The notes under the pieces are model-generated. The model was not told the origin of the DNA. It made no database searches and saw nothing but the letters and a program-made list of their open reading frames with translations. The position numbers were made by a program, and so were the translations under genes. From positions 1,212,340 to 1,276,339 of the forward strand of contig CAVPRM010000002.1 in NCBI GenBank assembly GCA_963707945.1: a DNA stretch of 64,000 bases, read 5' to 3'. Each line of letters opens with the position of its first letter. The first letter of the stretch is position 1. This stretch comes from an uncultured delta proteobacterium. GTDB lineage: Bacteria > Myxococcota_A > UBA9160 > SZUA-336. Positions 1,448 through 64,000 of this stretch are shown here, piece after piece.

Positions 1448-1462
1448 CTCCGCCGCAGCGCT

Positions 1463-1565
1463 GGCCGAGCGAGGGCCGCCCCGAGCGAGGGCCACTGCGG
1501 GACATCGGCCCGCGGTCCGATGTCGGGGGGCGCAGCCCCGCGCAGCGAGCCACAGGCGAGCGGAG
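1463..1565 (-). repeat. GC-rich REP/MITE-like repeat, copy A (inverted relative to copies B-E)
   Basis: The reverse complement aligns with the copies at 10655, 15123, 25445 and 57085. Shared CTCGCTGCGCG and GGCCCTCGCTCGG blocks flank the 24-nt palindrome GACATCGGCCCGCGGTCCGATGTC (1501-1524). It lies between the ACAD stop (1447) and the helicase start (1579). Confidence 0.8.
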
Positions 1566-1578
1566 TTAATCAGAAGGG

Positions 1579-3976
1579 GTGATCGCGGCGGACGAGCTCG
1601 CGCACACCCTCTCGGTCGGCGTCGACGACCTCGTCGACGTCGGCCCGGTGGGGTTCGCGACGGGGGCCGACGCGCCGGACGACGAGCTGCGTGCGCTCGC
1701 GGATCTGCGCGCGGCGTATCTGGAGCGCGCCGAGCGCGGCGGCGCGCGCGTCGCGTTGCGCCTCGAGGCGGAGCTCCGCTTCGGGGACTGGACGGTGCAG
1801 GTCAGCGGGCGTGCGGACGCCGTGCAGGCAGGCGCGAACGGGGCGGCGCTCGAGGTGCTGCGCACCGTTCCCGACGACGACCCCGAGCACGGCGCCGCGC
1901 GCGCGCTCGAGCGCGCGGGCTTCGCGGCGCTTCTGCTCGAGCTCCGCGGCGAGCCGGTGGCGCGCGCCGCCGTGGTCACCCTGGCGGCGGGGGTCGAGCC
2001 CACACGGAGCGCGGTCGCCTTCGGTCGCGAGGCCTGGGGCCGCCTTCTCGCGGAGCGGGTCGAGGAGATCGCGCGGCGCACCGAGGTGGAGCTCGGCCGG
2101 GTCCGTGCGCGCCGCGCGCTCGAGCCGCGCTTTCCGTTTCCCGAGCCGCGCCCCGTGCAGCAGGCGATGCTGCGCGAGGTGGCGGGCGCCGCGGCATCCG
2201 GTCTCGTGCTCTTGTGCAGCGCGCCGACCGGCGTGGGCAAGACCGCGGCCGCGCTGTTCCCGTTCCTGTCCGCCGCGCTGCGCGAGGACCGCCGCGTCTT
2301 CTTCGTCACCTCGCGCACCTCGCAGCAGGAGCTCGCGCTCGAGACCTTGCGCGGAATGCTGCCGGCCGGCGGCGGCGCCCTCGCGCTGCAGATCTCGGCC
2401 AAGGAGCGCGTCTGCCCGCAGCAGCAGCTCGGCTGCGTCGAGCGGCGCTGCCCGTGGGGCCGCCGCTTCGCGGAGCGGCTCGCGCGCACCGGCCTCCTCG
2501 ACGAGCTCGGCGCCGGCGGCGTGGTCACGTCGGACGAGGTCGCGGCCGCGGCACGCGCGCGCGAGCTGTGCCCCTTCGAGGTCGGCCTGCACCTGGCGCG
2601 GCGCTCGAGCGTGCTCGTGTGCGACTTGAACTACGTGTTCGATCCGCGCGTCGCCCTGCGACATCTGCTGAACGAAGCCGCGGGGCGCGACCTCCTGATC
2701 GTCGACGAGGCTCACGACCTGCCGGAGCGCGCCCGCTCGGCGCTCTCGCCCGCGCTCGAGCCCGCGAAGCTCGAGGCGCTCGGCGCCGCGCTCGAGCGGC
2801 CAGCTCGAGCCGGCGTACGGGAGCGCGGGCCGCCTCCTCCTCGAGGTGGCGGAGCACTGCCGCGCGCAGGCCGAGCGGCTGGGCGAGGAGCGCGAGGGCA
2901 AAGCACCCTGGGTCGAGCCCGCCGCCCGCGGCTTCTGGGAGCCGATCGCGCTCCGCGCGACGGTCGCGCAGATGGAGACCCAGGCGCTCTGGGCGCGCGG
3001 CGAGGGCCGCCCCGAGCTGCGCGTGCAAGCGGAGCGCGCAGCGAGGCAGAGCCGAGCGGAGCCAATCGGACGCGACCCGATCCAGAGCGCGCTCGCCGAC
3101 GTGCGCGAGTTCGCGCACCGCGCGGACGCCGATCCCGAACGCTTCGCCGGGCTTTGGGCGCCGGAGCGCGCCTCGCTCTTCTGCCTCGATCCCGCGCCGT
3201 GGCTGGGTGCACGGATCAAGAGCTTCCACGCGGCGGTGCTGATGAGCGCGACGCTCGCGCCGCTCGAGCACCACGCGCGCCTGCTCGGCGTGGACGGCCC
3301 GCGGGCCCTCTCGCTCGACCTGCCCTGCCCGTTCCCGCGCGAGAACCGGCTGCTGGTCGCGGTCGACTCGGTCGACACCCGCTTCAAGGTGCGCGGCGAG
3401 CACGCGGAGGCGATCGCGCGCACGATCGCGCGCTCGCTCGCCACGCGGCGCGGCAACTGGCTGGCGTTCTTCCCGAGCTTCGCGTTCCGCGACGAGGTGC
3501 TCGCGAAGCTGCCGCGCGGCGAGCACCGGGTGCTGCTGCAGCTCCCCGGCGCGCCTGTCGAGCCGATCCTCGAGCGGCTTCGCCAAAACAAGAGTGAGAC
3601 TTTGCTCATCTGCGGCGTACACGGCGGCGTGTTGGCGGAGGGCGTCGACTACCCGGGCGAGATGGCGATCGGCGTCTTCGTCGTCGGCCCGGGGCTGCCG
3701 AAGGTCGAGCTCGAGCGCGAGCTGGTGCGCGAGCGCTTCGAGCGCGAGCTCGGCGCAGGCTTCGAGTACGCCTATCTCGTGCCGGGACTTGCCCGCGCGG
3801 TGCAGGCGGGCGGCCGCGTGCTGCGCGGGCCCGACGACGTCGCGGCGATCGTGTTGCTCGACCGCCGCTTCGGCGAGCCCGAGTACTTCGACCGGCTGCC
3901 GGCGTGGTGGCGCACGGAGATGGTGCGCGCGAGCGATCCGGTCCCCGCGCTCGAGGCGTTCTGGCGCAGGGGCTAG
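1579..3976 (+). pseudogene. XPD/DinG-type Fe-S DNA helicase (superfamily 2), frameshifted near 2795-2801
   Basis: ORFs 1579-3597 and 2846-3976 together give one protein. It has Walker A CSAPTGVGKT, four Cys (CPQQQLGCVERRCPWG...ELCPFE), a DEAH box (IVDEAHDL), and the C-terminal motifs GVHGGVLAEGVDYPG and AGGRVLRGPDD. The frames join at ...LGAALE / GQLEPAYGSAGRLLLEVAEH. GTG start 1579 follows GAAGGGG. Confidence 0.8.
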
Positions 3977-8772: not shown

Positions 8773-10653
8773 ATGCCGCAGGCCGAAGCGTTGGCGATGC
8801 AAGCGCCCCTAGGCCTGCCGTCGGGCTCCATCGTCGCCGACCGGTACGAGCTCACCGGTGAGCTCGGCCGAGGCGAGCGCTCGATCGTGTACTCCGCGCG
8901 GGACCGGCGCAGCGGCGGCGACGTCGCGCTGAAGCTGCTCGCGCTCTCGCCGGCGACCGCGCACTTCGCTCGCCAGCGACTGCGCCGTGAGTCGGAGATC
9001 GTGCGCGCGCTCGCGCACCCCGGCATCGTGCGGCCGCTCGAGATCGTCGACCACGGATCCTGGAGCCTGATCGCGATGGAGATCGTCAGCGGCCGGTCGC
9101 TGGCCGGCGCCGTCGCCGCCGAAGGACCCCTGCACCCCGAAGCCGTCGCGCGGCTGGGCAACGAGATCGCCGATGCGCTCTCCGCGGCGCACCGCTGCGG
9201 GGTCGTCCACCACGACCTGAAGCCCGAGAACATCCTGCTCGACGCGGGCGGCCGCGCGCGGCTCACCGACTTCGGCTGTGCGCGGCTCGAGGGCCAGGCG
9301 CTGCTGACGTTGCCCGAGGATCCGGTCGCGCTCGCGGCCTACCTGCCGCCCGAGGTGGTCGAGGGCCAGATCGCGGACCCGCGCTCGGACGTGTATTCGC
9401 TGGGTCTCGTGCTCTATTTCGCTCTGGTCGGAAACGTGCCCAAGGGCCAGCGCCCCAACCTCCCGCCGCCGCCGCTCGCGGGCGGCTACCACCCGCGCGA
9501 GCGCCGGGCCGACGTGCCCGAGTGGCTCGACGAGATCGTGGCGCGCGCGACTCGCGCCGAGCCGGGCCATCGGCTCGAGACCGCGGAGCGCTTCGGCCGC
9601 GCGCTCGCCCAGCGCTCGCTGGAGAGTCGCGGCGACGAGGCGGCCGAAGGCCGCGCGCTGCGCGTGTGCGTCCTGTGCCGCAAGCCGGGCACGCTCGGCC
9701 GCGCGGTGTGTCCGCACTGCGAGGACGTCGAGGGCGGCGAGGCCGATCAGCTCGTCATGGTCGTGCCCGCGCGCGGCCGCGACCTGCGCGCCAGTCAGGT
9801 CAGGCTGCTGTCCGAGCTGACCAGCATTCCCGCGCGGCAGCTCGCCCTTCGCAGCGCCGTGCGCGCGCAGCGGGCGCTGGTTCGGGTGTCGAGCGCACAC
9901 GCCGAAGTGTTGGTGAAGCGGCTGCGCGGGCGCGGCATCGAGGCCCGCGCGCTGCCGCTCGATCGCGCCTGGCGCGCGCTTCCGCACTGGTCGCTGGCGC
10001 TCGCCGCGGCGACGGTGCTCGCAGGCGCGAGCGCGGCCTGTGCCGGCTTCCCGCTCCTGCTCGCCGCGTGCGCGGTTCCCGCCAGCGCCGCGCTGATCGC
10101 GGGCTGGTCCTGGATCCAGCGCGAGACCCTGCTCGGCGACAAGAGCGACGTCCCGCCGCCGGCCGCGCTGGTGCGCGCCGTGTCCGACGCGATGCCCCGG
10201 CTGCAAGTCGGGCAGGGACGCAAGCTCCTGATCGAGCTCCTGCGCATCGGCCGTGATCTGTGGCTGCGGCTGTGCGCGGGCGAGACCTCGGATGGCGCGC
10301 GCTCGGAGCTCACCGCCGCGCTCCTGTGTGGCTGCGACGCCGCCAGCGAGCTCGCGCGCCAGGACGGAATCCTCGACGCGCTCCAGCTCCACGGCGAGCG
10401 CCGCAACGAGCCGCCGCCGGGGCTCATGGAGAGCCGCGCGCTGTACCACAGCGCGCGCAGCCGGCTCGTGCAGGCCATGCTCGAGTGCGCCGCCTCGCTC
10501 TCGCGCCTGCGCGCGCAGGACATGGTCGAGCCCGAGGACGAGCGCCGCGCGCTGCACGCCGTCTGCTTCGAGCTGCGCGAAGAGCTCGAAGCGGTCCAGA
10601 AGCAGGCGGACGAGGCGTCGCAGCTCTTCCCCGGCCGGCCGGTCAGGCTTTAG
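8773..10653 (+). CDS. Hanks-type serine/threonine protein kinase with zinc-ribbon, TM and C-terminal helical regions
   Basis: GELGRGERSIVY ... VALK, HHDLKPENILL, DFG and PPE motifs. These are followed by CVLCRK...CPHC, hydrophobic segments (LALAAATVLAGASAACAGFPLLLAACAV) and a helical tail. Confidence 0.9.
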   Translation: MPQAEALAMQAPLGLPSGSIVADRYELTGELGRGERSIVYSARDRRSGGDVALKLLALSPATAHFARQRLRRESEIVRALAHPGIVRPLEIVDHGSWSLIAMEIVSGRSLAGAVAAEGPLHPEAVARLGNEIADALSAAHRCGVVHHDLKPENILLDAGGRARLTDFGCARLEGQALLTLPEDPVALAAYLPPEVVEGQIADPRSDVYSLGLVLYFALVGNVPKGQRPNLPPPPLAGGYHPRERRADVPEWLDEIVARATRAEPGHRLETAERFGRALAQRSLESRGDEAAEGRALRVCVLCRKPGTLGRAVCPHCEDVEGGEADQLVMVVPARGRDLRASQVRLLSELTSIPARQLALRSAVRAQRALVRVSSAHAEVLVKRLRGRGIEARALPLDRAWRALPHWSLALAAATVLAGASAACAGFPLLLAACAVPASAALIAGWSWIQRETLLGDKSDVPPPAALVRAVSDAMPRLQVGQGRKLLIELLRIGRDLWLRLCAGETSDGARSELTAALLCGCDAASELARQDGILDALQLHGERRNEPPPGLMESRALYHSARSRLVQAMLECAASLSRLRAQDMVEPEDERRALHAVCFELREELEAVQKQADEASQLFPGRPVRL

Positions 10654-10654
10654 C

Positions 10655-10735
10655 TTCGCTCGCCTTCGGCTCGCTGCGCGCTCGCTCCGCTCGCTCCGCT
10701 CGCTTGCGGCTCCGCGCGAGGGCGGCCTCGCGCTC
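10655..10735 (+). repeat. GC-rich REP/MITE-like repeat, copy B (left arm conserved, right half divergent)
   Basis: CTTCGCTCGCCTTCGGCTCGCTGCGCG starts 2 nt after the kinase stop. It shares the left arm with copies C, D and E and contains a short GCTCGCTCC tandem. It lacks the central palindrome. Confidence 0.65.
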
Positions 10736-14097: not shown

Positions 14098-15114
14098 CGG
14101 CTCGAGGATCACCTTGCACTGGTGGGTGGGGGTCTTCAGCGCCTCGAACGCGCTCGGGAACGCGGCGAGGTCGACGACGTCGGTGATCATGTCGCGGCCC
14201 GGGATGCGGCCACGGTCGAGCATGTCGACGACGAGCTCCCAGTCGCGCCGGTGGTAGGCGACCACGAAGCGGAGCTCGACCTCCTTGATGATCCCCATGA
14301 CCGGGAAGATCGTGTCGGGCTGCATGCACACGCCGACCACCACCACGCGGCCGCGCACCTTGGCCATGCCGATGCACTGCTGCACGAGCCCGGGCACGCC
14401 GACGCACTCGAAGATCACGTCGGGCGGGCCGCCCGTCTCGCGCTGGAACACCGTGACCGGGTCCTCCTTCGACACGTCGGCGACCGCGGTCGCGCCGAAC
14501 TTCTGCGCGAGCGCGATGCGGCCCGGCGCGCGCTCGTTCACCACGACCGCGCGCGCGCCGAAGAAGCGCGCCCATGCCGTGACGGCGAGCCCGATCGGCC
14601 CGGCGCCGATCACCATCACCCGCTCGCCGGGCTGGAGCCGCGCCTGGTTCACCGCGTGCAGGCCGACCGCCAGCGGCTCGACCAGCGCGCCTTCGCGGTA
14701 GGACACGCCCGCGGGCAGACGCAGCGACTCGCTGCCGCCGACCAGCACGTACTCCGAGTACGCGCCGGGGATCTGGCCGAGCCCGGTGCCGCGCAAGCTC
14801 GAACACAGGATGATGTCGCCCGCGAGGCACGGTCCGCATTTTCCGCAGCCGATCGCGGGGAAAGCGCAGACGCGGTCGCCCACCTTCCAGCCCCCGCGCG
14901 CCTCGGCGCCGACCTCGACGACCTCGCCCGCGAACTCGTGACCCATCACCGTCCCGGCAGGCAGTCCCGGCGGCAGCGACGCCGCGTGCAGATCCGAGCC
15001 GCAGATCCCGCAGCTCCGGACGCGCAGCACGAGCTCGCCCGGTCCCGGCTTGGGGTCCGCGAGCTCTTCGATGGTGAGCGGCTGCCCCAGCCCGTGAAAC
15101 ACCGCGCCCTTCAC
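14098..15114 (-). CDS. zinc-dependent alcohol dehydrogenase (MDR family); no in-frame stop before the hydrolase
   Basis: GTG 15114 follows AAGGAG. Motifs: CGICGSDLH, GHEFAGEVVEVG, CGKCGPCLAG and the Rossmann VIGAGPIGL. The frame runs straight into the MTSLAFPE start of the next gene, where an ATGA lies in another frame. Confidence 0.85.
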
Positions 15115-15122
15115 ATGTTCTC

Positions 15123-15195
15123 CTTCGCTCGCCTGCGGCTCGCTGCGCGCCGCCTTCGGCGCTTGCGGCCTCGCTCGGGGACGGCCCTCGCTCGG
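15123..15195 (+). repeat. GC-rich REP/MITE-like repeat, copy C (central palindrome absent)
   Basis: CTTCGCTCGCCTGCGGCTCGCTGCGCGC ... CCTCGCTCGGGGACGGCCCTCGCTCGG abuts the ADH ribosome-binding site. Confidence 0.7.
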
Positions 15196-15235
15196 CGATC
15201 TCCAGCTTGATAAGAGCCGCATCATGGACCATGAA

Positions 15236-19918: not shown

Positions 19919-22900
19919 ATGTTGAAGCTGTTCCGGCTCTCGATCTGGTTCACCTGTCTCGGGGCCGCGTCTCTCGCATCGGCCCAAGGGCAGCCCTATC
20001 TCGTCAAGGACGTGAACGCGACCCTGACCACGGCCGGCTCGTCGCCCGGCGAGGTCACACAGGTCGGAACCACCCTCTACTTCGTCACGACGCCGGCTTC
20101 CGAGAACGCGCTCTGGAAGACCAACGGCACCAGCGCCGGCACGGTGCTGGTCAAGCATCTGGGAGTCGCCGGAGCGAGCAACGCCGCGTCGCTCGTCGCG
20201 CTGAACGCGACCACCCTCCTCTTCACGGCGAGTGACTCCGCGGGCCGCGAGCCCTGGCGCAGCAACGGCACCGCGGCCGGCACGTTCCGCATCGGCGACT
20301 TCAACCCGGGCGCGGCGGACTCCATCCAGGGCCGCTTGACCGTGGTCAACGGCGTGGCGTACTACGTCGGCATCGACGCAGCGGCGGGCCGCGAGCTGTG
20401 GCGCACGGACGGCACCGCAGGCGGCACCTTGCGCGTGAAGGACATCCTGCCCGGGCCGGGTGACTCGAACATCTCAGGGCTCGTCGCGCTGAACGGCGTC
20501 CTCTATTTCACCGCGAACGACGGCACGAACGGCGCCGAGCTGTGGAAGAGCGACGGGACCGCGGTCGGGACGACCATGGTCAAGGACATCAACCCGACCG
20601 GAGGCTCGCTCCCGCTGCTGCCGGTTGCGCTCGGCAACCTGCTGTACTTCTCGGCGACCGACGGCACCTCCGGCTTCGAGCCCTGGAAGAGCGACGGCAC
20701 CAGCGCGGGCACCGTGCGCGTGGCCGACATCGCGCCGGCCGGCGCCTCGTCATCCCCCACGGCCTTCGCGCTGCTCGGGAGCACCGTCTACTTCGCCGCG
20801 AACGACGGCACCTCGGGCATGGAGCTCTGGAAGACCGACGCCGGCGGCACTGCGCTCGTCGCGAACATCGCGGCGGGCTCGGCCAGCTCGACCCCGGCGC
20901 TCCTGACCCCGCTGAACGGCGTCCTCTACTTCACCGCGACGACCACCGCGGCCGGCCGCGAGCTGTGGCGCAGCGACGGCACCGCGGCCGGCACGACGAT
21001 GGTGAAGGACATCTTCGCAGGCGCCACCGGCGGTATCTCGCCCGGCTCGGGTCTCGTCGCGATCGGCAGCCGGCTCTTCTTCGCGGCGAACGAGGGGACC
21101 GCCGGGAACGAGCCCTGGACGAGCGACGGCACCCCCGCCGGCACGGTGCGGCTGGCGGACATCTTCGCGGGCGCCAACCCCTCGACGCCGACCCCGTTCG
21201 TCGGCTCGAGCGGCCTCGCCTACTTCCCGGCCGACGACGAGACGATCGGCCGCGAGCTCTGGAAGAGCGACGGCACCCCCGCCGGCACGGTGCCGGTGAA
21301 GGACCTCACGCCGGGCAGCGGCGACTCGCTCTTCAGCACCGCGTTCGGCGATCTCGCCGGCACGGCGTTCTTCAGCGCCAGCGACGGCGTGAACGGAACG
21401 GAGCTCTGGAAGAGCAACGGAGCCGCACCCGGCACGACGCTCGTGAAGGACATCCGGCCGGGCGCGGCGGGCTCGGTGCCGAGCACCTTCAAGACCGCGA
21501 ACGGCCTCGTGTTCTTCCAGGCCGACGACGGCGCGAACGGCAGCGAGCTCTGGAAGAGCGACGGCACCAGCGTCGGGACGGCGATGGTCCGCAACATCGC
21601 GTCCGGCTCGGCCGGCTCGGGGGCGCTCCCGATCGGGACCATCGGCAGCGTGGTGCTGTTCTCCGCCAACGACGGCTCGGGAAACGGCCCGACGCTCTGG
21701 AAGAGCGACGGCACCAGCGGCGGAACCACCCAGCTGGCTGTCGTCGCCCCGTTCTCGAGCGGCGTCGTGCGGGCCGGCTTCTTCTACTTCCTGGGGGCGG
21801 ATCAGAACGCGGGCGGCGAGCTCTGGCGCACCAACGGCTCGAGCGCCTCGATGGTGGCGGACCTGAACCCGGACCTCGGGACCGGCTTCGCGATGGGCGC
21901 GTCGCTCGCCGCGGTCGGCAGCTCCGTCCTGTTCGCGGGCAACGACGGCGTGACCGGCATCGAGCTCTACGAGAGCGACGGCAGCGGCGCGACGCTCGTG
22001 AAGGACATCAACGAGGGCACCGACAACTCGTCGCCGCAGAGCTTCGCCGTGGCGAACGGAGTGCTGTTCTTCTCGGCCGACGACGGCGTCTCGGGCGTCG
22101 AGCTGTGGAAGAGCGACGGCTCGCCGGCCGGTACGGTGATGGTGAAGGACATCCAGCCGGGCCCGACGGGAAGCTCGCCGGCTCAGCTCGTCCCGGTGGG
22201 CTCGAACGTCTTCTTCCGCGCGAACGACGGAGTCTCCGGGATGGAGCTCTGGAAGAGTGACGGCACCGCCGCCGGCACGGTCCTGGTGCGCGACTTCGCG
22301 ACGGGCTCCCCCAGCTCCACGCCGCAGCCGTTGATCGCGGCGAACGGCGTTCTCTACCTCACGGTGAACGACGGTGTAACCGGCGCCGAGCTGTGGAGGA
22401 GCGATGGAACCGCACCGGGAACCGTGCTGGTGCGCGACATTTCGCCCGGCATCGGCGGCTCCACGCCGAGCCTGGCGACCCTGATCGGCTCGAACCTCTA
22501 TTTCGCCGCGCGGACTGACGCACAAGGGCTCGAGCCCTGGCTGCTGCCGCCCGTCGCTCTTCCCGACGGCGATCTCGACGGACTCAGTGACTCGGCCGAG
22601 CTCGGCCTCGGCTCGAACCCGGCCGACGCCGACTCCGACGACGACGGCCTGCCCGACGGCGCCGAGGAGTTCACGTACCACACGGGCGTCCTGGACGCCG
22701 ACTCCGACGACGACGGCGCGAGCGACGGCGCCGAGGTGACCGCCGGGAGCGATCCGCGCGAGCCGACCTCGGTGCCCCCGCCCCCGATCCCCGTCCCCGC
22801 GCTGCCCCCGAGCGCGGGGTTCGGCCTCGCCGGTCTGCTGCTCGCTTCGGCGCTGGCGAGCCTACGCCGCGGCCGCTCGAGCCAAGTCCGCTCGGAGCCA

Positions 22901-24961: not shown

Positions 24962-25435
24962 GTGACGACCATTCGAGCGTTCGCAGTTTGCGGCGTCGTG
25001 TCTCTCTTCATGCTCGCCGCGTCGGGCGCGCGCGCTCAGTCGGACGGCATTCCGACGATCACCGGCGCGTGGACCGGCAAGATCAGCTCGGTCTACTGGG
25101 ACCAGACGGCTGACGGGTCGCCGCACCCCAAGCACAAGTTCAAGTCGAAGGTCGACGTCTCGATCGATCAGAAGGGCGGCTCGATCCTGCTGACCTTCAG
25201 CTTCAACGACGACCTGCCCGTGGACGCTGGCGGCGGCACTTCTTCGCTCGTCCTCACGGGCAATGTCGGCAACTACCACCTGAGCGGGGTGGCCGAGGCC
25301 GCTCCGGGAGTCCCGGCCGTCGCGGTCTCCGGCACCTCGAACAAGAAGGGCACCAAGATCACACTCAAGGGTGTCGCCGCTTCCGACGACTTCACTCAAG
25401 AGATCAAGATCAAGATCAAACGAATCGCGCCGTAG
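24962..25435 (+). CDS. secreted hypothetical protein
   Basis: GTG 24962 lies 6 nt after GGGAGG. Signal peptide VTTIRAFAVCGVVSLFMLAASGARAQ, then a beta-rich small protein ending EIKIKIKRIAP. Confidence 0.6.
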   Translation: MTTIRAFAVCGVVSLFMLAASGARAQSDGIPTITGAWTGKISSVYWDQTADGSPHPKHKFKSKVDVSIDQKGGSILLTFSFNDDLPVDAGGGTSSLVLTGNVGNYHLSGVAEAAPGVPAVAVSGTSNKKGTKITLKGVAASDDFTQEIKIKIKRIAP

Positions 25436-25444
25436 TCCTATCGA

Positions 25445-25539
25445 CTTCGCTCGCCTTCGGCTCGCTGCGCGCTTCGCTTGCGACCTCGCTCGCCGACATC
25501 GGACCGCGGGGCGATGTCCCGCGGTGGGCCCTCGCTCGG
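25445..25539 (+). repeat. GC-rich REP/MITE-like repeat, copy D (full length)
   Basis: CTTCGCTCGCCTTCGGCTCGCTGCGCGC ... palindrome GACATCGGACCGCGGGGCGATGTC (25495-25518) ... GGGCCCTCGCTCGG. It fills the gap between two convergent stops (25435 and 25548). Confidence 0.8.
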
Positions 25540-25547
25540 CCTCCCCG

Positions 25548-44705: not shown

Positions 44706-45907
44706 TGAGCCGGCCGCCTTGCAGGCTCGCCGCGCTGGGTCAGGTCAGCGCGCTGGGTCGGGAGCGCTCGGAGGTCTACGCGCGGCTGATTGCCGGCGAC
44801 TCCGGCCTCTCGCTGCGCGACGATTTCGTCCCGGAGCGAAGCCTCTGGCTCGGCGCCGTGCGCGAGCCGCTGCCGGCGATCCCGTCCGCGCTCGCGCGCT
44901 TCGCTTGCCGCAACAACCAGCTCGCGCTCGCGGCGCTCGAGTCGATCGGCGCCGAGGTCGCCGCCGCCGTCGCGCGGTTCGGCGCGGAGCGGGTCGGGGT
45001 CGTGGTCGGCACCAGCACCTCGGGCGTGGGCGACGCGGAGGCGGCGATCGCGCACCGCGAGCGCACGGGGGTGCTCGCGCACGAGTTCCACTACGACCAG
45101 CTCGAGTTCGGCGGGCTCGCGCGCTTCGTGGCCCTGGCCGCGGGCGCGCGCGGGCCGGCGTACACGCTCTCGACCGCCTGCTCCTCGGGCGCGCGCGCGC
45201 TGGCCTCGGCGCGCTCGCTGGTGGCGCTCGGCGTCTGCGACGCGGTGATCTCCGGCGCGGCCGACTCGCTGTGCGGGCTCACCACCAACGGCTTCGCTGC
45301 GCTCGGCGCGCTCTCGGCGCAGGTGACCAACCCTTGTAGCGCGAACCGCGACGGCTTGAACCTGGGAGAGGCCGGCGTTCTGTTCCTCGTCACCGGCGAG
45401 CCCGGCGGCGTTCAGCTCCTCGGCGTGGGCGACTCGAGCGAGGCCCACCACATGTCCGCGCCCGACCCCGAGGGGCGCGGGGCCGAGGTGGCGATGAAGA
45501 TGGCGCTCGACGACGCGGGGCTCGCGCCGGGCGAGATCGCCTACCTGAACCTCCACGGCACCGGCACGCCGCAGAACGACGTCATGGAAGCGGCGGCGGT
45601 CGCGCGCGTGCTGGGCGAGTCGGTGCCCTGCAGCTCGACGAAGCCGCTCGTCGGCCACACGCTGGGCGCCGCGGGTGCGCTCGAGGCCGCGTTCTGCTGG
45701 CTCGTGCTCGCCGAGGCTCGCGGCGGCCGCCTCGCCCTGCCCCCGCACGTGTGGGACGGCGCGCGCGACCCCGCGCTCGCCGCGATCCATCTGGCCGGCA
45801 AGGGCGAGACCGTCCTGGCCGGGCCGCGCCCGCGCGTGATGACGAACTCGTTCGGGTTCGGCGGGAACAACTGCACGCTGATCCTCGGCGCGGGCGAGCC
45901 GGCGTGA
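44705..45907 (+). CDS. beta-ketoacyl-ACP synthase (type II PKS/FAS KS, APE-cluster type)
   Basis: 400 aa with the active-site Cys in LSTACSSG and His motifs HGTGT and GHTLGAAG. These are the last 401 codons of ORF 43178-45907. Confidence 0.9.
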   Translation: MSRPPCRLAALGQVSALGRERSEVYARLIAGDSGLSLRDDFVPERSLWLGAVREPLPAIPSALARFACRNNQLALAALESIGAEVAAAVARFGAERVGVVVGTSTSGVGDAEAAIAHRERTGVLAHEFHYDQLEFGGLARFVALAAGARGPAYTLSTACSSGARALASARSLVALGVCDAVISGAADSLCGLTTNGFAALGALSAQVTNPCSANRDGLNLGEAGVLFLVTGEPGGVQLLGVGDSSEAHHMSAPDPEGRGAEVAMKMALDDAGLAPGEIAYLNLHGTGTPQNDVMEAAAVARVLGESVPCSSTKPLVGHTLGAAGALEAAFCWLVLAEARGGRLALPPHVWDGARDPALAAIHLAGKGETVLAGPRPRVMTNSFGFGGNNCTLILGAGEPA

Positions 45908-48423: not shown

Positions 48424-48542
48424 GGCGATCTCCTCTGCCGTTGATCTGCCTTCACCCCCTAGACGAACGAGCCAGCTGGATCTCGACAGCCACCCCCGAT
48501 TTCGGGTTACCTTCACCTTGACCCGTTGGACAAGGATGCCCC

Positions 48543-50021
48543 GTGAGGATCTCCCGGATCGCGCTCGCCCTCCTCCTTTCTCTGTTCGCCCAGACCGCCG
48601 CCGCGCAAGACCAGACCTTCACCAGCCTGGGCGGCCCCTGGTGGTTCACGCTGGGCGGCAAGGACAAAGGCGCGGTCGTGCTTCAGTTCACCGCGCCCGA
48701 GAGCGGGACCTTCGCGGTCACCGACGTGGAGCTCACCGATCACCCGAGCTTCGGCTTCTCGCGCGCGATCGGGGATTTCTTCCAGATCGAGGCGGACCAG
48801 GAGTTGTCGCTCGACTCGAAGCGCAGCATTTCGGGCGACCTCGAGCTGACCGAGCCCGACGGCGGTCCCGTGATCAGCGTCCTGTCGATCGCGAAGGGCA
48901 AGGTGAACAAGACGTTCACGAAGCTGAGCTTGAAGGGAACGATCGAGGGCGAGGACGGGCCAGTCGTGGTCAAGCTCAAGGGCGTGCGACCGCCCCAGGG
49001 CTTCCCCGTGCTCACGGGCGGCACCACGGAGGGAGGTCTCAAGGGCAAGGCCGTGAAGAGCACGGCGCTCGATCTCACCCTGACGGGCGACGAGGTGCTC
49101 GGCGTGCCCGCTTACGCGTTCAGCGCCGTGGGTCCGGCCGAGATCGACAAGGAGGAGGTCCCCGACGTGTCGCTCGACGGCCGCGTCATGCTGCTGCCGA
49201 GCTTCAAGGTGTTCGGGGTGATGGACGACTCCTCCGACTTCGGAGACGGCGCTGCGAAAGGCAAGCTCCACATCTCCGATCCCAACACCGCGATCCCTAA
49301 GTTCGCCGTCAACATCGCGGCGGAGCCGAAGCTGAAGCTGAAGGGAACGCTCACGGAGGCGGTCGAGCCGATCCTGCTGGTCGCCCCGACGAGCTTCGAC
49401 TTCGGCGCGCTCCGGCTCGACGCGAGCGCCGAGCACACCTTCACGGTCCAGAACGTCGGCACCGGATCGCTCTCGGGATCCGCAACTTCCTTGTCCGGCT
49501 CGAGCACCGACTTCGCGCTGTCGGGCGCAACGGCGTACGACGGCCTCGCGAACGGCGACGATCCCTTCGAGGTCGACGTCACGTTCGATCCGTCCTCGGC
49601 CGGCGCGAAGACCGCGCAGCTGCGCTTCGGCGTCGCCGGCGGCGCCGGCTCGTTCGTGGTTCAGCTCACCGGCACCGGTGGCGTCTCCGAGCTCACGGTC
49701 GACCCCGACCCGATCACTTTCGACGACGCGACGCCCGCTGGCGCGGCGCAGTTCATCGACGTCACCCTGACGAACGACGGCGACGCGACCCTCACCGGCC
49801 AGGCGTCGATCGGCGTGTCGACGGTGTTCGCGCTCATGAACGGCCCCGTGGTCGCGGGCCTCCCGATCGGCCTGAACATCGCTCCCGGTGCGAACCAGGT
49901 GCTCACGGTGCGCTTCACTCCGCCGGCCACGGTGGGGAACTCGAACGCGACGCTGACGCTCACGGGCCCGACTGCGGGCAACAAGACGGTGGCGATCTCC
50001 GGAGCCGTGGTCTCCCCTTAA
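48543..50021 (+). CDS. secreted protein, paralog 1: novel N-terminal domain plus two choice-of-anchor-D/ASH-like Ig-fold domains
   Basis: Signal peptide RISRIALALLLSLFAQTAAAQ and N-terminal QTFTSLGGPWWFTLGGKDKGA. The C-terminal modules LLVAPTSFDFGALRLDASAEHTFTVQNVGTGSLSG and LTVDPDPITFDDATPAGAAQFIDVTLTNDGDATLTG are typical of choice-of-anchor D. Confidence 0.8.
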   Translation: MRISRIALALLLSLFAQTAAAQDQTFTSLGGPWWFTLGGKDKGAVVLQFTAPESGTFAVTDVELTDHPSFGFSRAIGDFFQIEADQELSLDSKRSISGDLELTEPDGGPVISVLSIAKGKVNKTFTKLSLKGTIEGEDGPVVVKLKGVRPPQGFPVLTGGTTEGGLKGKAVKSTALDLTLTGDEVLGVPAYAFSAVGPAEIDKEEVPDVSLDGRVMLLPSFKVFGVMDDSSDFGDGAAKGKLHISDPNTAIPKFAVNIAAEPKLKLKGTLTEAVEPILLVAPTSFDFGALRLDASAEHTFTVQNVGTGSLSGSATSLSGSSTDFALSGATAYDGLANGDDPFEVDVTFDPSSAGAKTAQLRFGVAGGAGSFVVQLTGTGGVSELTVDPDPITFDDATPAGAAQFIDVTLTNDGDATLTGQASIGVSTVFALMNGPVVAGLPIGLNIAPGANQVLTVRFTPPATVGNSNATLTLTGPTAGNKTVAISGAVVSP

Positions 50022-50125: not shown

Positions 50126-51728
50126 ATGCGTATCCATCGAATCGCGCTCGCGGTGGCCGTGTTCACGTTGCTCGCCCAGGTCGCCGCCGCGCAGCAGACC
50201 TTCACCAGCGTGGGCGGGCCGTGGTGGTTCAAGCTATCGGGCAAGGACAAGGGCGCGCTGTTCGTCGAGCTCAGCGAGCCGAATGCCGGCACGCTGACCG
50301 TCGTGGACGTCGCGCTCAGCGACCGCCCGAGCTTCGGCTTCTCGCGCTCGCTGGCGGCGTTCTTCCAGCTCGCCGCGGGTCAGGCGCTGTCGATCGACGA
50401 GAAGGGCAACCTCACCGGCGTGCTCGAGCTCAGCGAAGCGGGCGGCACCGATCCGGTCGGCATGCTCACGATCGACAAGGGCAAGTCCAACAAGAAGTTC
50501 ACCAAGCTCGAGCCTGCACGCGACGATCGAAGGCGTGGGCGGAGCGCCGCTCGTGGTGAAGCTCACGGGCGTGCGGCCGCCGGCCGGCTTCCCCGTGCTG
50601 ACGGGTCACACGAGCGAGGCGAGCGTCAAGGGCAAGGGCGTGAAGTCGAGCCAGCTCGATCTCGCCGTGACGAGCGACGGCAATCTCGGCTTCCCCGCCT
50701 ACACCTGGACCGGCGCGGGCATGGTCGACATCGACAAGGTCCCCGTGGACGCGAACTTCGCCGGCCACCTCATGCTCGATCCGAAGTTCAAGGCGCAGGG
50801 GCTGCTCGAGAGCTCGTCAGACCTCGGGACGGGCCCGCTCAGCGGGAAGCTCGTCGCGAGTGGCAAGACCGCGACCGTTCCGAAGCTCTCGCTCACCGCC
50901 GAGGCCGACCGCAAGCTCGGAATCAAGGCCAAGCTCAGCGACCCGACCGAGCCGATCCTCCTGGTCACTCCGCTCAGCTGGAACTTCGGCGCGATCCACC
51001 TGGACGGCATGCCCATCAAGTTTTTCCAGGTCTCGAACGTGGGCGTCGGGACGCTGTCCGGAACCGTCTCGTTCCTGGCCGGCAGCGATCCCGACTTCAA
51101 GCTGCCCGGAGCGACCACGTACGGTCCGCTCGCGCCGGGCGATCCGCCCGTCAACATCGCGGTCATGTTCGACCCGAACGTGCCGGGTGACAAATCCGCG
51201 TCGCTGCGCTTCGGCGTCGACACCTTCGTCGGCGCGAAGGTCGTGGCACTGACGGGCGTGGCCGGCCTGGCCGACATCGATGTCGACACGGACCCGATCA
51301 GCTTCGACGACACGGCCGTCGGATCGTCGCAAATGCTGGTCGTGACCGTGTCGAACGGCGGCGACGCCACCCTCACCGGCAGGGCGACGCTGACCGGCTC
51401 GAGCGCCTTCGCGCTGCTCACGCCGCCGAACACGCTCCCGGTGAGCCAGATCTCCTATTCGCTCGCGCCCGGCGCCGAAAAGGAGATCACCATCCGCTTC
51501 ATGCCGACCGCGACGGCCGACTTCACCGGCACGCTGAACCTCACCGGCGGCGGCGGCCTGATCGGTGGCGATGGACGGGACGGGGATCTGAGCGCTCAGC
51601 GCCCTCGCTCCGGCCTGCCCAGCGCCCGCCTCCGCTCGCCCTTGTACGCGTTCGCGCGGCGGCCCATCTCGTTGCCGTCGGCGGGGAAGAAGAACTCGAA
51701 GGCGCTGTCGATCGGACCGCCGTCGTAG
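50126..51728 (+). pseudogene. secreted protein, paralog 2 of 48543-50021; frameshift near 50510, 3' end uncertain
   Basis: MRIHRIALAVAVFTLLAQVAAAQQTFTSVGGPWWFKLSGKDKGA... is colinear with paralog 1. Deleting the g at 50510 restores TKLSLHATIEG, which aligns with TKLSLKGTIEG. The last ~45 codons overlap the antisense of the convergent gene and have no counterpart in paralog 1. Confidence 0.75.
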
Positions 51729-55991: not shown

Positions 55992-56722
55992 GGCGCGCTC
56001 CGGCCCGCGAGCAGCGCCGGCGCGCGGCGCAGCATCGCGAGCCACAGCCGCGCGTAGGTCGCGCCCATCACGGGGAAGTCGCGGCCGACGTCGAAGTGCG
56101 AGATGCCGCCGGGCACGTAGATGACCCGCACCGGCACGTTCACGATCGGGATGCCCTCGAAGACGCAGCGCACCGCGAACTCCGGCTCGAACTCCATGCG
56201 GGTGCCGAGCTTGCCCCGCGCCAGCACGCGCAGCGCCGGGCCCAGCGGCACCCCGCGCATGCCGCAGAGCGGGTCGCGGATCGCGAACGAGAGCGTCGCC
56301 AGCCACACCGCGCCGCGCGAGAGCTGGCGCGCCCAGATCCGCGAACGCGGCGCGGTCGCGTCGAAGACCGGCTCGCCGAGGACGAGCGCGTCGGGATCTT
56401 TCTGCATCGCCTCGAGCATGCGCGGCACCGCTTCGGCTTCGTGCTGACCGTCGGCGTCGAGCTGAAGCGCGTGCGTGAAGCCGAGCTCGGCGGCGAGCGC
56501 GTAGCCGGCCTTGAGTGCCGCGCCCTTCCCGCCGTTCTCGGGCAGCGCGTGGAGGTGCACGAAGTCGAAATCGCGCGCGAGCCGCGCCAGCTCGGCGCGG
56601 GTCTCGGATCCGCTCCCGTCGTCCACGACCAGACACGGAAGAGCGTAGCCCGCGAGCGATTCGAGCACGCCGCGCAGCGGAGCGCCGTGGTCGTAGCAAG
56701 GGATCAAGAGGCAGGGCTTCAC
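55988..56722 (-). CDS. glycosyltransferase family 2
   Basis: LLIPCYDHG, VVDDGSGSET, ENGGKGAALKAG and QLDADGQH (DxD region); 244 aa. Confidence 0.88.
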   Translation of the reverse strand: MKPCLLIPCYDHGAPLRGVLESLAGYALPCLVVDDGSGSETRAELARLARDFDFVHLHALPENGGKGAALKAGYALAAELGFTHALQLDADGQHEAEAVPRMLEAMQKDPDALVLGEPVFDATAPRSRIWARQLSRGAVWLATLSFAIRDPLCGMRGVPLGPALRVLARGKLGTRMEFEPEFAVRCVFEGIPIVNVPVRVIYVPGGISHFDVGRDFPVMGATYARLWLAMLRRAPALLAGRSAP

Positions 56723-58623
56723 GGCGAGCCCTCCGGGGCCAGCGCCGCGCGGCCCGAGGCGAACGTGCGCGCGCCGGCGAACACGCGGAAGCGCAGGCTC
56801 GCGCCGTCCGGGTCGAGCTCGACCTCCAGGGCGAAGCTCTGCTCCGGCTCGAGCACGTCCCGGAAGCGGACTCCCGACAGCGCGCCCACGCGGCGCGACG
56901 GTCCGACGAGCTCGCGCGCCGCCTGCAGCACCCAGTGGAGCTGCACCACCCCCGCGACCAGCGGCCTGCCCGGGAAGTGGCCCTCGAGGAAGGCGAGCTC
57001 TGCGGGCACGCGCAGCTCGCGCACGAGCTTGCGCAGATCGCGCTGCTCCGAGATCAGCACGGGCTCGCGCACGGGCCCGATTGTCTTCGCTCGGCTGCGC
57101 CTCGCTGCGCGCGGCTGCGCCGCCGACAGCGGCCCGCGGGACGATGTCCCGGGGAGGGGCCTCGCTCGGGACGGCCCTCGCTCGGCCTCGCCATCGTCGA
57201 GCAGCTCGAGCAGCTTCGCCTGCGCGAGCTTGCCCTGCGGGTCGCGCGGCAGCTCGGCCAGGTAGCGCCAGGCGCGCGGCAGGAGCACGCGATCCCAGTA
57301 CCCCGCGAGGTGATCGGCGAGCGCCGCGCCCAGCGCGCGCCGGCCGCTCTCCGCGAGCGCAGTCTGGCCGGCGTCGGACAGGGCGACCACGGCGCCGACC
57401 CGCGCGTCACCGCCCGCGTCGAACGCGACCAGCGCCGCATCCGCGACGAAGGCGTGCGTGCGCAGGTGCGATTCCATCTCGGGCAGCGCGAGCCGCTTCT
57501 CGCCGACCTTCACGATCCGGTCGGCGCGGCCCAGCAGCGCGAACCCGCCGTCGGCGTGGAGCTCGACCCGATCGCCCATCACCAGAGTCTGCGGCTCGCC
57601 GGCGCGCGCTGCCGAGCCGACGCTGACGAACGGCGAGCGCACGACGAGCCGGCTCTCGTCCGGCTCGGCCGCGAGCTCGACGCCGGGGAACGGCTGCCAG
57701 CGCGCGGAGGGCCCCGCCAGCGACTGCGCCCGCCAGGCGACGCCGCCGGTCTCGCTCGAGCCGAAGATCTCGAGCGGCGCCTGGCCGACCAGCCCGGCGA
57801 CGTCGCGCGCCACGTCGTCGTCGAGCGGGCCGCCCGACGAGAAGATCGCGCGGCACCCCGCGCGGAGCCCCGCGAGCTCGGCGTCGGCGCGCATCCGGCG
57901 CAGGTGCACGGGCGTGGTCGCCAGCGCGAAGTCGCCCGCCTCGCGCATGCGCGGGAAGAGCTCCTCGGTGTGCAGGAACGTCTCGGCCGAGAAGGCGCGC
58001 CCCGACGCGAGCGGCCAGAGCACCCGGAACAAGAGGCCGTACAGGTGCTGGTGCGACACGGTCGCGAACACGCTCGCGCGGCCGAGTCGCGCGCCGAACA
58101 GCGCCTCTTGCACGGCCAGCTCGAGATCCAGGTGGCGCAGCGCCTTCGGCACCGCCTTGCCCGGCCCGGTCGTGCCCGAGGTCGAGAGCTCGACCAGCGG
58201 CCGATCCGGATCGAGCGCCTCGAAGCGGACGGCCCCGGTCCCGACCTCGCCCAGCGGGTCGAGCCGCGGCAGGCCGGACAGCTCGTCCTCACCGATCCCC
58301 GGATCGACGAGCGCGCCGTCGGCCTGCGCGGCCAGCTCGGACAGGGTCTGCGGCTGCCGGTTCGGCGCGACCAGCGCCCGCGCGCCCGCGTGCGCGACCG
58401 CGAGCAGGCCCACCGCGAACGCGTAGCTGTCCTCCGAGAAGAGCAGCAGCCGGGCGCTCCGGCGCGCCGCGATCTGGGCCGAGAGCGACCCGACCCGCGC
58501 CGCGAAGTCCGACCAGTCGCGCTCGACGTCCCGCGCGAATGCGACCCGAACGCGCGGATTCCGCCCCCTGCGGAGCAGCTCCGCGAGCGGGATGAAATCG
58601 AGGGCGGCGGCGAGCTCGCTCAC
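56719..58623 (-). CDS. AMP-dependent synthetase/ligase fused to a C-terminal FabZ/ApeI-type hotdog dehydratase
   Basis: TSGTTGPGKAV, FGSSETGG, GRADRIVKVGEKR and the QGKL adenylation cores, then the linker GEAERGPSRARPLPGTSSRGPLSAAQPRAARRSRAK encoded by repeat copy E, then LAFLEGHFPGRPLVAGVVQLHW (hotdog). It is a single 634-codon ORF. Confidence 0.85.
   Translation of the reverse strand: MSELAAALDFIPLAELLRRGRNPRVRVAFARDVERDWSDFAARVGSLSAQIAARRSARLLLFSEDSYAFAVGLLAVAHAGARALVAPNRQPQTLSELAAQADGALVDPGIGEDELSGLPRLDPLGEVGTGAVRFEALDPDRPLVELSTSGTTGPGKAVPKALRHLDLELAVQEALFGARLGRASVFATVSHQHLYGLLFRVLWPLASGRAFSAETFLHTEELFPRMREAGDFALATTPVHLRRMRADAELAGLRAGCRAIFSSGGPLDDDVARDVAGLVGQAPLEIFGSSETGGVAWRAQSLAGPSARWQPFPGVELAAEPDESRLVVRSPFVSVGSAARAGEPQTLVMGDRVELHADGGFALLGRADRIVKVGEKRLALPEMESHLRTHAFVADAALVAFDAGGDARVGAVVALSDAGQTALAESGRRALGAALADHLAGYWDRVLLPRAWRYLAELPRDPQGKLAQAKLLELLDDGEAERGPSRARPLPGTSSRGPLSAAQPRAARRSRAKTIGPVREPVLISEQRDLRKLVRELRVPAELAFLEGHFPGRPLVAGVVQLHWVLQAARELVGPSRRVGALSGVRFRDVLEPEQSFALEVELDPDGASLRFRVFAGARTFASGRAALAPEGSP
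57085..57185 (+). repeat. GC-rich REP/MITE-like repeat, copy E, lying in frame inside a coding sequence
   Basis: CTTCGCTCGGCTGCGCCTCGCTGCGCGC ... GACAGCGGCCCGCGGGACGATGTC (57125-57148) ... CCTCGCTCGGGACGGCCCTCGCTCGG is colinear with copies A and D. Confidence 0.8.
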
Positions 58624-62788: not shown

Positions 62789-64000
62789 ATCGCGCCGCGC
62801 GGCTCGCGGCCTGGGCCGTGCTCTCCGCCGCGCTGCTCGCCTACAGCGCGGCGCACCTCGAGTTCTCCACCGACATCACGAACTTCCTGCCCGACGGCGA
62901 GGGCGCCGAGCTGGCGCAGATCTCGCGCGAGCTCACCCGGAGCGAGCTGACCCGCACGGTGGTGCTCTCGATCGGCGCGGACGACCCGGCCGTGGCCCGC
63001 GCGGCCGCGCGCGAGCTGGCCGAGACGCTGCGCGCGAACCCGGAGGTCGCCTGGCTGCGCGCCGGCGCGGACCCGGAGTTCCTGCGCGGTGTGTACGAGC
63101 TCTACTTCCCGCGCCGGATGTACTTCCTGTCGGACGCGCCGGAGACCGAGCTCCCCGGCCGACTCTCGGACGAGGGGCTGCGGGCGCAGGCGCAGGCGGT
63201 GCGGGCGAGCCTCGCGCTGCCGACCTCGCCGCTCATGAAGCAGATCGTCCCGGAGGATCCGCTCGGCGCGCTCGAGCGCCAGCTCGCGCGGCTCACGGCG
63301 GGCGAGCCGCCGCTCGTGACGCGCGACGGCGTCTTCACGACCGCGGACGGACGCTTCGCGGTGCTGGTCCTGGCCACGCGCCACTCCGCGTTCGACTCCG
63401 CGGCGCAGGCGCCGCTGCTCGACGCGATCGCCGCGAAAGTTCGCCGAGCTGCGCGCGCGGCTCGGCGGGAACCTCGTCCTCGAGCAGAGCGGCGCAAACC
63501 GCTTCGCCGTCGACGCCGAGCGCCAGATCCGCTTCGACGCCTCGTGGATCTCCGCGCTCTCGTTCGCGGGCGTCACCGCGCTCACCTACGTGTTCTTCCG
63601 CTCGCCCCTGTCGCTGCTCCTGGTGATGATGCCCGGCACGTTCGGACTGCTCGTGGCGATGGCGCTCGGCATCGCCGTGTTCGGCAAGCTCGACGGGATG
63701 ACGCTCGCGTTCGGCGGGTCGCTGATCGGCGTCACCGTCGACTACCCGACCCACCAGCTCATCCTGTGGAGCCTCTCGGAGCGCAACGAGTCCGCCTGGC
63801 AGCTCTCGCGCCGGCTCGGCGCTTCGCTCGTGATGGCGGCGCTCACGACGATCGCGAGCTTCGCGGGCATGGCCTTCACCTCGTTCCCCGGCTTCCGCGA
63901 GCTGGGGCTGTTCTCGACGGTCGGCGTGGGCGCGGCCGTGCTCGCCTCGCTGTTCATGCTGCCCGACCTGTTGCCGCGGCGGCGCCGCGTGCTGCCCGCC
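62785..64000 (+). pseudogene. MMPL/RND-type exporter (partial, continues past window), frameshift near 63437
   Basis: GTG 62785 overlaps the LolA-like stop (GTGA). It has an N-terminal TM helix plus a periplasmic domain. After ...LLDAIAAK the frame changes (aaa-g-ttc) to FAELRARLGGNLVLEQSG...FFRSPLSLLLVMMPGTFGLLVAMALG...VTVDYPTH...SFPGFRELGLFS. Confidence 0.8.

Follow-up and report, generated by a model that had tools for sequence, protein, structure and literature searches.

Did a dispersed intergenic repeat weld two neighbouring genes into one, or did it enter a gene that was already fused? The question is raised by a 64,000-nt stretch of DNA, hereafter the window, from an uncultured delta proteobacterium (GTDB lineage Bacteria; Myxococcota_A; UBA9160; SZUA-336; GenBank assembly GCA_963707945.1, contig CAVPRM010000002.1, positions 1,212,340 to 1,276,339 of the forward strand). 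In it, a single open reading frame (ORF) of 634 codons with a GTG start encodes an ApeH-type ligase and an ApeI-type hotdog dehydratase, separated by a linker that resembles a repeat found elsewhere in the same DNA (Table 1). The original prediction, made from the sequence alone, regarded this as an intergenic element captured in frame, or one whose insertion removed a stop and a start and thereby created the didomain protein. The analysis presented here leads to a different order of events: very probably, the ApeH-ApeI-type enzyme was ancestrally fused, and a copy of a dispersed, mostly intergenic repeat resembling repetitive extragenic palindromes (REPs) inserted in its short interdomain linker.

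That the approximately 35 interdomain residues are encoded by a repeat copy, as had been proposed, was borne out. A blastn search of 57050-57230 against the window matched 1463-1571 (84% over 110 nt, E=3e-27) and 25437-25539 (76% over 103 nt), with shorter matches to the linker DNA at 3034-3069, 10654-10681 and 15123-15196. A subsequent nhmmer profile search gave exactly six copies in the window, designated A to F, among which copy A was the nearest relative of copy E, the one in the linker. The 27-nt core CGCGCAGCGAGSCNNAGSCGAGCGRAG occurred six times in the window and not once in 100 shuffles; together with the E-value above, this argues that the likeness is not a coincidence of low-complexity sequence. 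The internal palindromic module was slightly degenerate in copy E in comparison with copies A and C. Copies A, C, D and F are truly intergenic and packed tightly to gene ends. The claim that all copies other than E are intergenic failed for copy B, which sits in a continuous helicase coding frame (see below). Copy A ends about 10 nt ahead of the helicase start, and the right end of copy D, GAGCGAAG followed by GAG, forms a Shine-Dalgarno sequence 6 nt before the GTG at 15114. Rfam at gathering thresholds gave no match in the window.

The age of the fusion was approached by a homolog search in 5.8 billion proteins, which returned 1892 matches at E<=1e-10, of which the best 120 (46-86% identity) were examined. 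In nearly all of these 120, PF00501 and PF22818 lie in one protein of about 580-640 aa, the few exceptions being truncated proteins, such as P0004. In more than 25 aligned relatives (alignment A1), the domains are joined by a short conserved linker, ...LLExG-AERAPVxxPxL..., which is present in all relatives of this alignment save the window protein, P0002 and P0004; the window protein carries about 33 additional residues at precisely this point. The short linker G-AERAPV, with no repeat copy, was also seen at 11 more metagenome loci (65-80% identity). The existence of fused, element-free orthologs with a short linker makes the fusion ancestral rather than a product of the insertion. Moreover, a search with the dehydratase domain only was made in a library of 1.84 billion proteins clustered at 50%. 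Among the best 150 clusters, about 49 were proteins of 540-770 aa with the dehydratase at the C-terminus, the fused forms extending down to approximately 31-37% identity, and about 70 did not exceed 200 aa, i.e. were of stand-alone size. Both architectures are therefore widespread, and in this lineage the fusion is much older than the repeat.

These results divide the original claims. The expectation that ligase and dehydratase are encoded by separate genes holds for the characterised clusters of E. coli and Xenorhabdus, where ApeH is the acyl-ACP (acyl carrier protein) synthetase and ApeI/ApeP are the dehydratases, all separate proteins (PMC8253772), but it does not hold for this lineage. The ortholog alignment, suggested at the time as a check, found relatives that lack the element, among them the close P0001 and P0003, and the ligase and the dehydratase were fused there too. 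Likewise, a mostly intergenic repeat is indeed read through in frame in this gene, but it did not make the didomain protein, since element-free homologs are already fused.

The insertion can be followed by comparing the filled site with empty ones. The locus L001 encodes P0001 (91% identity outside the linker), and L003 encodes P0003 (83%), both without the element; their empty sites are continuous ORFs that align codon for codon with the window on each side. The empty site of L003 reads GGC GGC GCC GAG CGC GCG CCC GTT CGC GAG, and the filled site of the window reads GGC GAG GCC GAG CGA GGG CCG ... GCG AAG ACA ATC GGG CCC GTG CGC GAG. From GCCGAGCG to just before CCCGT, there are 111 nt in the window against 12 nt in L003, a net gain of 99 nt (33 codons). 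A megablast comparison with L001 left 57073-57188 unmatched between flanks that were 90-92% identical, and the junctions themselves place copy E within these limits (Table 1), so the span of 57085-57185 proposed earlier was close. The inserted stretch is alignable over its length with the intergenic copies A and C; this, together with flanks collinear with the empty sites, indicates that the element entered a pre-existing linker. The base composition of the gene points the same way. GC content at third codon positions is 0.87-1.00 (about 0.95) along the full ORF, while at second positions it rises to 0.80-0.87 in linker codons ~481-520 versus ~0.5 in the rest of the gene. The linker is therefore compositionally unlike the remaining gene, which is consistent with a foreign, non-coding origin.

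The way of entry can be proposed from the ends of the insert. At the empty site, GCCGAGCG (Ala-Glu-Arg codons) is identical to the left end of the element, GCCGAGCGAGGGCC; the octamer is found at the empty sites of L003, L125, L126 and L136, and GAGCG in most others. Terminal inverted repeats were not found: GCCGAGCGAGGGCC on the left and GGCGAGCGAAG-NNNATC on the right are motifs in the same direction. When the filled site was set against the empty ones of L003 and L001, no target-site duplication was seen beside the insert, the duplication by which a miniature inverted-repeat transposable element (MITE) would be recognised. The lack of inverted repeats and of a target duplication, combined with the shared octamer, makes capture or recombination guided by microhomology at GCCGAGCG likelier than cut-and-paste transposition. 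The insertion of the repeat copy in the linker G-AERAPV kept the frame and added no stop, and the linker grew from about 10 to about 45 residues, rich in Arg, Pro, Ser, Ala and Gly and predicted to be disordered.

Both catalytic domains remained intact. The presence of an adenylation and an ApeI-like dehydratase domain in this ORF was confirmed by Pfam matches above the cutoffs: PF00501 (AMP-binding) at residues 26-299 (50.6 bits vs a cutoff of 29.9), with the C-terminal subdomain extending to ~465, and PF22818 (ApeI-like) at residues 533-606 (31.9 bits vs 28.5). The adenylation domain possesses the motifs A3 TSGTTGPGK (148), A5 GSSETG (288), A7 MGDR (349) and A8 GRADRIVKVGEKR, as well as A10 PRDPQGK (459) with the catalytic lysine, and the corresponding columns are invariant in alignment A1. 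Its closest resemblance among NCBIfam models was to the 4-coumarate-CoA ligase TIGR02372, at 83.6 bits far under the cutoff of 334.7. The dehydratase has its GHFPG histidine motif at 548, with H549 nearly invariant in A1, and the solved ApeI structure PDB 6qsr_A aligns with residues 528-626 (E=1.4e-8). This PDB entry is a 119-aa chain matching the dehydratase domain, yet it is titled "AMP-dependent synthetase and ligase", which hints that fused homologs have long influenced annotation. An AlphaFold2 model with A1 as the input alignment had a mean pLDDT (predicted local distance difference test) of 83.7, most 10-residue blocks of both domains scoring 85-97. The insert, residues 479-517, scored ~30 (below 50) and had no secondary structure. 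It is thus predicted to be a disordered extension of the interdomain tether, where added residues would do the least harm. With both catalytic domains intact, the insert most likely behaves as a near-neutral passenger that the enzyme tolerates, and not as a functional innovation.

Table 1. Positions in the window of the fused gene, its domains and the six copies of the repeat.
Feature	Position	Strand	Basis
Didomain gene, 634 aa: ApeH-type adenylation/ACP-loading domain, linker and ApeI-type hotdog dehydratase	56719..58623	-	ORF list, Pfam, 120 homologs
Adenylation (ANL) domain, residues 1-478	57190..58623	-	Pfam, motifs, AlphaFold2 pLDDT mostly 85-97
ApeI-like hotdog dehydratase domain, residues 518-634	56719..57072	-	Pfam, PDB 6qsr_A, pLDDT ~90
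Repeat copy E, long form, read in frame as AERGPSRARPLPGTSSRGPLSAAQPRAARRSRAKTIG	57076..57186	-	junction analysis
Conserved 27-nt core in copy E (CGCGCAGCGAGGCGCAGCCGAGCGAAG), with GGC-GCA-GCC mini-hairpin	57085..57111	-	
Internal palindromic module, long form (GGGACATCG-TCCCGCGGGC-CGCTGTCGG)	57123..57150	-	alignments; inverted-repeat pair I2 for copies A/C
Copy A, long form, intergenic: acyl-CoA dehydrogenase stop (1447) / helicase GTG start (1579)	1458..1578	+	
Copy B, short form, within XPD/Rad3-like helicase coding frame, read as GEGRPELRVQAERAARQSRAEPIG	2996..3073	+	
Copy C, long form, fills the 112-nt gap between convergent stops (25435, 25548)	25431..25545	-	
Copy D, short form, 5' leader of a Zn-alcohol-dehydrogenase-like gene	15109..15203	-	
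Copy F, short form, begins at the Ser/Thr kinase stop codon (10651-10653), antisense to the kinase gene	10648..10729	-	

Related alleles occur at the same site in two relatives. P0002 (81% identity, from a different ENA assembly, ERZ27276473) has a shorter in-frame insert in the same place, AERGPSRART..QAAEPRAARRSRAK; its linker reads ...SERAERGPSRART-QAAEPRAARRSRAKSTR TERAPVREP, with the palindromic module absent and TERAP kept after the element. In L002 (7440-7562; P0004, 88%), the left part of the element stands at the same codon, and the ORF ends at a TAG in a hairpin loop; after the element comes the 3' end of an unrelated convergent gene, and the contig ends 83 nt later. The portion of the element in L002 is most similar to the short-form copy D. 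Here, either the fused gene is truly truncated or the assembly is chimeric at the repeat. A metagenome scan for an independent assembly of the window allele yielded only the element-free relatives (65-80% identity) and one contig (L135) ending before the linker. The P0001 linker, AKPVERAL, was considered as an excision footprint, and no convincing derivation from the element ends was obtained.

Several observations weigh against a simple insertion of a passenger element into a fused gene. Outside the linker, the window protein, which has the element, is nearest to P0001, which does not (91%), and P0002, with an insert, is nearest to P0003, without one (89%); such patchy presence among the closest relatives requires repeated gain or loss. 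The insert of P0002 was seen in the protein alignment alone, and an 8-nt microhomology would arise by chance fairly often in such GC-rich coding sequence. The protein itself may be non-functional or differently processed. Finally, the source assembly has at least one probable single-base indel (near 2790, in the helicase gene), which leaves the base accuracy in a GC-rich repeat uncertain, although a sequence error at copy E would be more likely to break the frame than to preserve it.

Among the alternatives, fusion of two adjacent genes by an intergenic repeat that removed the stop and start between them is very unlikely. The separate ApeH and ApeI proteins of the characterised clusters (PMC8253772), the roughly 70 of 150 dehydratase clusters of stand-alone size and the true repeat nature of the linker are all in line with such an origin, but in relatives, both close and at moderate distance, the two domains are fused in the absence of the element through the shared linker G-AERAPV, the empty sites of L001 and L003 are continuous ORFs, and fused forms reach down to ~31-37% identity. 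Rescuing it by secondary excision would be implausible given the depth of the fused clade. The match statistics and the core count also leave a negligible probability either to a coincidental GC-rich likeness or to the reverse origin, with the intergenic copies derived from the linker of the gene: the genome has 72% GC and GAGCG-type motifs of the element are also found in coding sequence, but the similarity extends to 84% over 110 nt, and the family counts at least 119 loci in dozens of metagenome-assembled genomes (MAGs), while an insert in the linker is seen in just a few of the closely related proteins.

A mis-join or a collapsed repeat, absent from the real chromosome, must be regarded as highly improbable. 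The source is MAG-like with at least one likely indel error, and contigs of relatives (L002, L135) break at or near the repeat. Nevertheless, both flanks stay collinear with L001 at 90-92% and the insert keeps the frame exactly. P0002, from an independent assembly, carries a related in-frame insert at the corresponding position, and a wrong join should not lead back into one and the same gene with its frame unchanged. There is, furthermore, an unlikely variant in which the insertion is not neutral, acting through termination or mRNA processing caused by its hairpins, through re-initiation of the dehydratase at an internal GTG, or by making the gene a young pseudogene. It would agree with L002 (P0004), where a TAG within the element at this linker site closes the ORF, with the preference of intergenic copies for gene ends and for the orientation of the upstream gene, suggestive of a role at the transcript 3' end, with the Shine-Dalgarno sequence supplied by copy D, and with the frameshifted helicase in which the other coding copy, B, resides. 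Against this, the ORF is intact and in frame, GC content at third codon positions is normal on either side, all catalytic motifs are retained, a scan of the sense strand over 56700-57500 gave no promoter-like or terminator-like signal, and the folding energy is no better than that of shuffles; the L002 contig, ending so shortly after the element in unrelated sequence, may be an assembly chimera. On the antisense (+) strand, a terminator-like hairpin with a T-rich tail was found at the junction of the element and the dehydratase (57060-57079; one found vs 0.1 expected), which is probably fortuitous. A near-neutral insertion into an ancestrally fused gene remains the preferred reading.

The repeat family extends far beyond the window. 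A scan for the core pattern in one genome per GTDB species gave the loci counted above, and among the matches listed all repeat-bearing genomes are uncultured MAGs labelled Myxococcota, Deltaproteobacteria, Myxococcales and, in some cases, Spirochaetales (L008, L010, L011, L013 and others, labelled "uncultured Spirochaetales"); the last label is probably wrong taxonomically. In general, a copy consists of GCAAGC, a hairpin whose sequence varies, the 27-nt core and about 9 nt more (NNNATCRGG), whereas the left module and the internal palindrome of the window copies are features of a subfamily. Folding energies gave no sign of a special stability: for the six copies on both strands, z-scores ranged from -0.45 to +0.19 against shuffles, in sequence of 72% GC. 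The structure was therefore judged by counts of pairing and covariation. In the spacer from CAAG to the core, perfect pairing of at least 4 bp from the ends inward was present in 54% of copies compared to 1.3% of shuffles, over 58 distinct sequences with the loops GAA (25), GCA (8) and GGA (4). At the two S positions within the core, 102 copies have C..G and 66 have G..C, while 2 are mismatched, so that 168 of 170 covary. Paired spacers and covarying S positions indicate that pairing is preserved while the sequence varies. The mini-hairpins that make up the family have GNA triloops; in single-stranded DNA, such hairpins of the d(GCGNAGC) type are known for their exceptional stability.

A stop codon often marks the beginning of a copy (TAGCAAGC...). 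In 97 of 134 cases, the gene upstream has the same orientation as the element; between co-directional genes, sense and antisense orientations stand at 62:17. In other MAGs, the element is often directly followed by AAGGAGG and a start codon. Direct tandem arrays of two to three or more units with periods of ~46-100 nt were seen at L031 (4597-4715), L033 (3056-3266) and L065 (4844-5043), as well as in L023 and L028. Only 5 of 170 cores lie within a continuous frame with coding-like flanks, the other 165 being outside such frames. Two of the five are copies E and B of the window; the others, from L078, L112 and L101 (reverse strand, core at ~6830), belong to other MAGs and use a different frame (...RSEPQASE...). 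One of these three is located in an apparent beta-hairpin loop of a LigD-type (phosphoesterase-like) protein, RGRFTLVRTG[...]NWLLIKKPD. All six frames of the element are mostly free of stops, and hence the choice of frame is not forced. The sense orientation of all five coding copies was examined as a possible signal and is not significant given the 62:17 sense bias of the family.

A literature search with the core sequence gave only unrelated primer matches. As neither Rfam nor the searched literature yielded a description of the family, it may deserve one of its own. A bolder and rather doubtful proposal is that the repeat is a previously undescribed structured, mobile or recombinogenic element of Myxococcota, with the 27-nt core and a paired stem of free sequence both built of GNA-triloop mini-hairpins. 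Single-stranded intermediates might carry it to sites with microhomology of the GCCGAGCG type, and the linker between ligase and dehydratase would be a hotspot hit repeatedly, sister lineages having long, short or truncating alleles. If so, the element would actively remodel linkers and loops in this lineage and occasionally split fused genes.

By analogy, the closest known phenomenon is that of the Rickettsia palindromic elements (RPEs; Ogata et al. 2000, as summarised in PMC10969869), dispersed palindromic repeats inserted in frame in unrelated genes at structurally permissive sites. Both families are short (~100-150 bp) and dispersed, contain internal palindromes, occur between genes as well as in frame within unrelated genes, and add a peptide of 30-50 residues at positions compatible with the fold, such as loops and linkers. 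The permissive sites here are the disordered ligase-dehydratase linker, a variable loop of the helicase and the three genes in other MAGs. However, host (Myxococcota here, Rickettsia there) and composition differ and the sequences are presumably unrelated, which limits the likeness to a functional analogy, and only about 3% of the sampled copies (5/170) are coding, compared to nearly half in some RPE families. GNA-triloop mini-hairpins, same-direction GAGCG motifs and the use of two reading frames in different genes are further differences on the side of the present family.

The family also fits the description of a REP as a short, highly repeated, mainly extragenic palindromic unit. Like REPs and bacterial interspersed mosaic elements, it is abundant, short and GC-rich with hairpin potential, occupies short spacers past stop codons or between operon genes, is biased in orientation relative to transcription and forms tandem clusters. 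In contrast to the near-identical REP copies, its stems vary with pairing kept (58 spacers), and its tandem arrays are direct, not alternating. With MITEs such as ERIC, Correia and BOX (PMC10969869), it shares the character of small non-autonomous repeats and the occurrence of translational fusions or insertions in host ORFs, but neither terminal inverted repeats nor a target-site duplication was present at the one filled-versus-empty site available. The didomain fusion itself is ordinary for this lineage, and the repeat family is the more interesting part. The locus offers a clean filled-versus-empty case outside Rickettsia of an intergenic repeat residing in frame in an enzyme, in an interdomain tether where it should do the structure no harm, and it illustrates how selfish repeats lengthen linkers and loops. 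In practical terms, the repeat is a hazard for metagenome assembly, with contigs breaking or mis-joining there.

Copy B, the other in-frame copy of the window, has the same orientation and reading frame as copy E (...AAQPRAARRSRAKTIG). Its frame has a strong coding signal and belongs to the C-terminal half of an XPD/Rad3-like helicase (PF13307; PDB XPD matches). In helicase orthologs (77-79% identity), the site is taken up by a loop of about the same length that is poorly conserved and cannot be aligned; by this comparison, copy B is a replacement inside a variable loop with a net gain of 15 nt and not a clean insertion. The PDB helicase alignments start where the copy-B segment ends and are uninformative on this point. 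Near 2790, the helicase gene (1579-3976, +) has one base too many (GAGCGGCCAG vs GAGC-TCCAG in L124) and falls into two ORFs that overlap; in the source annotation, too, its C-terminal half is a separate 376-aa protein (P0121), on a contig of 2.79 Mb. The break is either an assembly indel or a recent pseudogene.

The surroundings of the didomain gene fit an aryl-polyene/flexirubin-type cluster for a lipid pigment, as far as gene content can tell. On the same side, Pfam recognises a PlsC-type acyltransferase, two ACPs, the ligase-dehydratase gene, a GT2 glycosyltransferase, a lipid-A-type acyltransferase, an ApeP-like dehydratase and a ketoreductase; on the other strand nearby are an aromatic amino-acid lyase and a LolA-like protein. 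The order of neighbouring genes is the same in L001 and L002. One ketosynthase is encoded at 44708-45907, ~8 kb away on the opposite strand, and the cluster may run past the window end at 64000. The adenylation domain would probably activate an aromatic starter and then load it on one of the two adjacent ACPs, the likely starter being 4-coumarate supplied by the neighbouring lyase, and the hotdog dehydratase domain probably works with the ApeP-like partner nearby. The domain families PF00501 and PF22818 are those of ApeH and ApeI (PMC8253772; PDB 6qsr), and the two ACPs, acyltransferase, GT2, ApeP-like, ketoreductase and LolA-like genes are likewise shared with aryl-polyene clusters. Unlike in the characterised systems, both enzymes form one polypeptide here and in a large Myxococcota-centred clade, this copy having in addition a repeat-derived linker, and the adjacent aromatic amino-acid lyase would suggest a coumarate-type starter, as in flexirubin, instead of 4-hydroxybenzoate. 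That fused ApeH-ApeI proteins are common in Myxococcota-type aryl-polyene clusters should aid annotation, since the characterised clusters have separate genes. In a Proteobacteria MAG, the 846-aa protein P0046 unites three enzymes, with a GT2 glycosyltransferase fused to the ligase and the ApeI-like dehydratase; thus, the downstream gene of the cluster is also fused in some lineages.

Elsewhere in the window, a long gene at 20073-22474 (+) has approximately 15 tandem repeats of ~144 nt (48 aa). They share the conserved motif ...ELWKSDGT..GT..., which points to a repeat protein of the beta-propeller or FG-GAP-like kind. At 48537-50021 and 50508-51728 (+), two adjacent paralogs with Ig-like ASH/DUF1573-type domains share DNA blocks that are ~72% identical at an offset of ~1583 nt.

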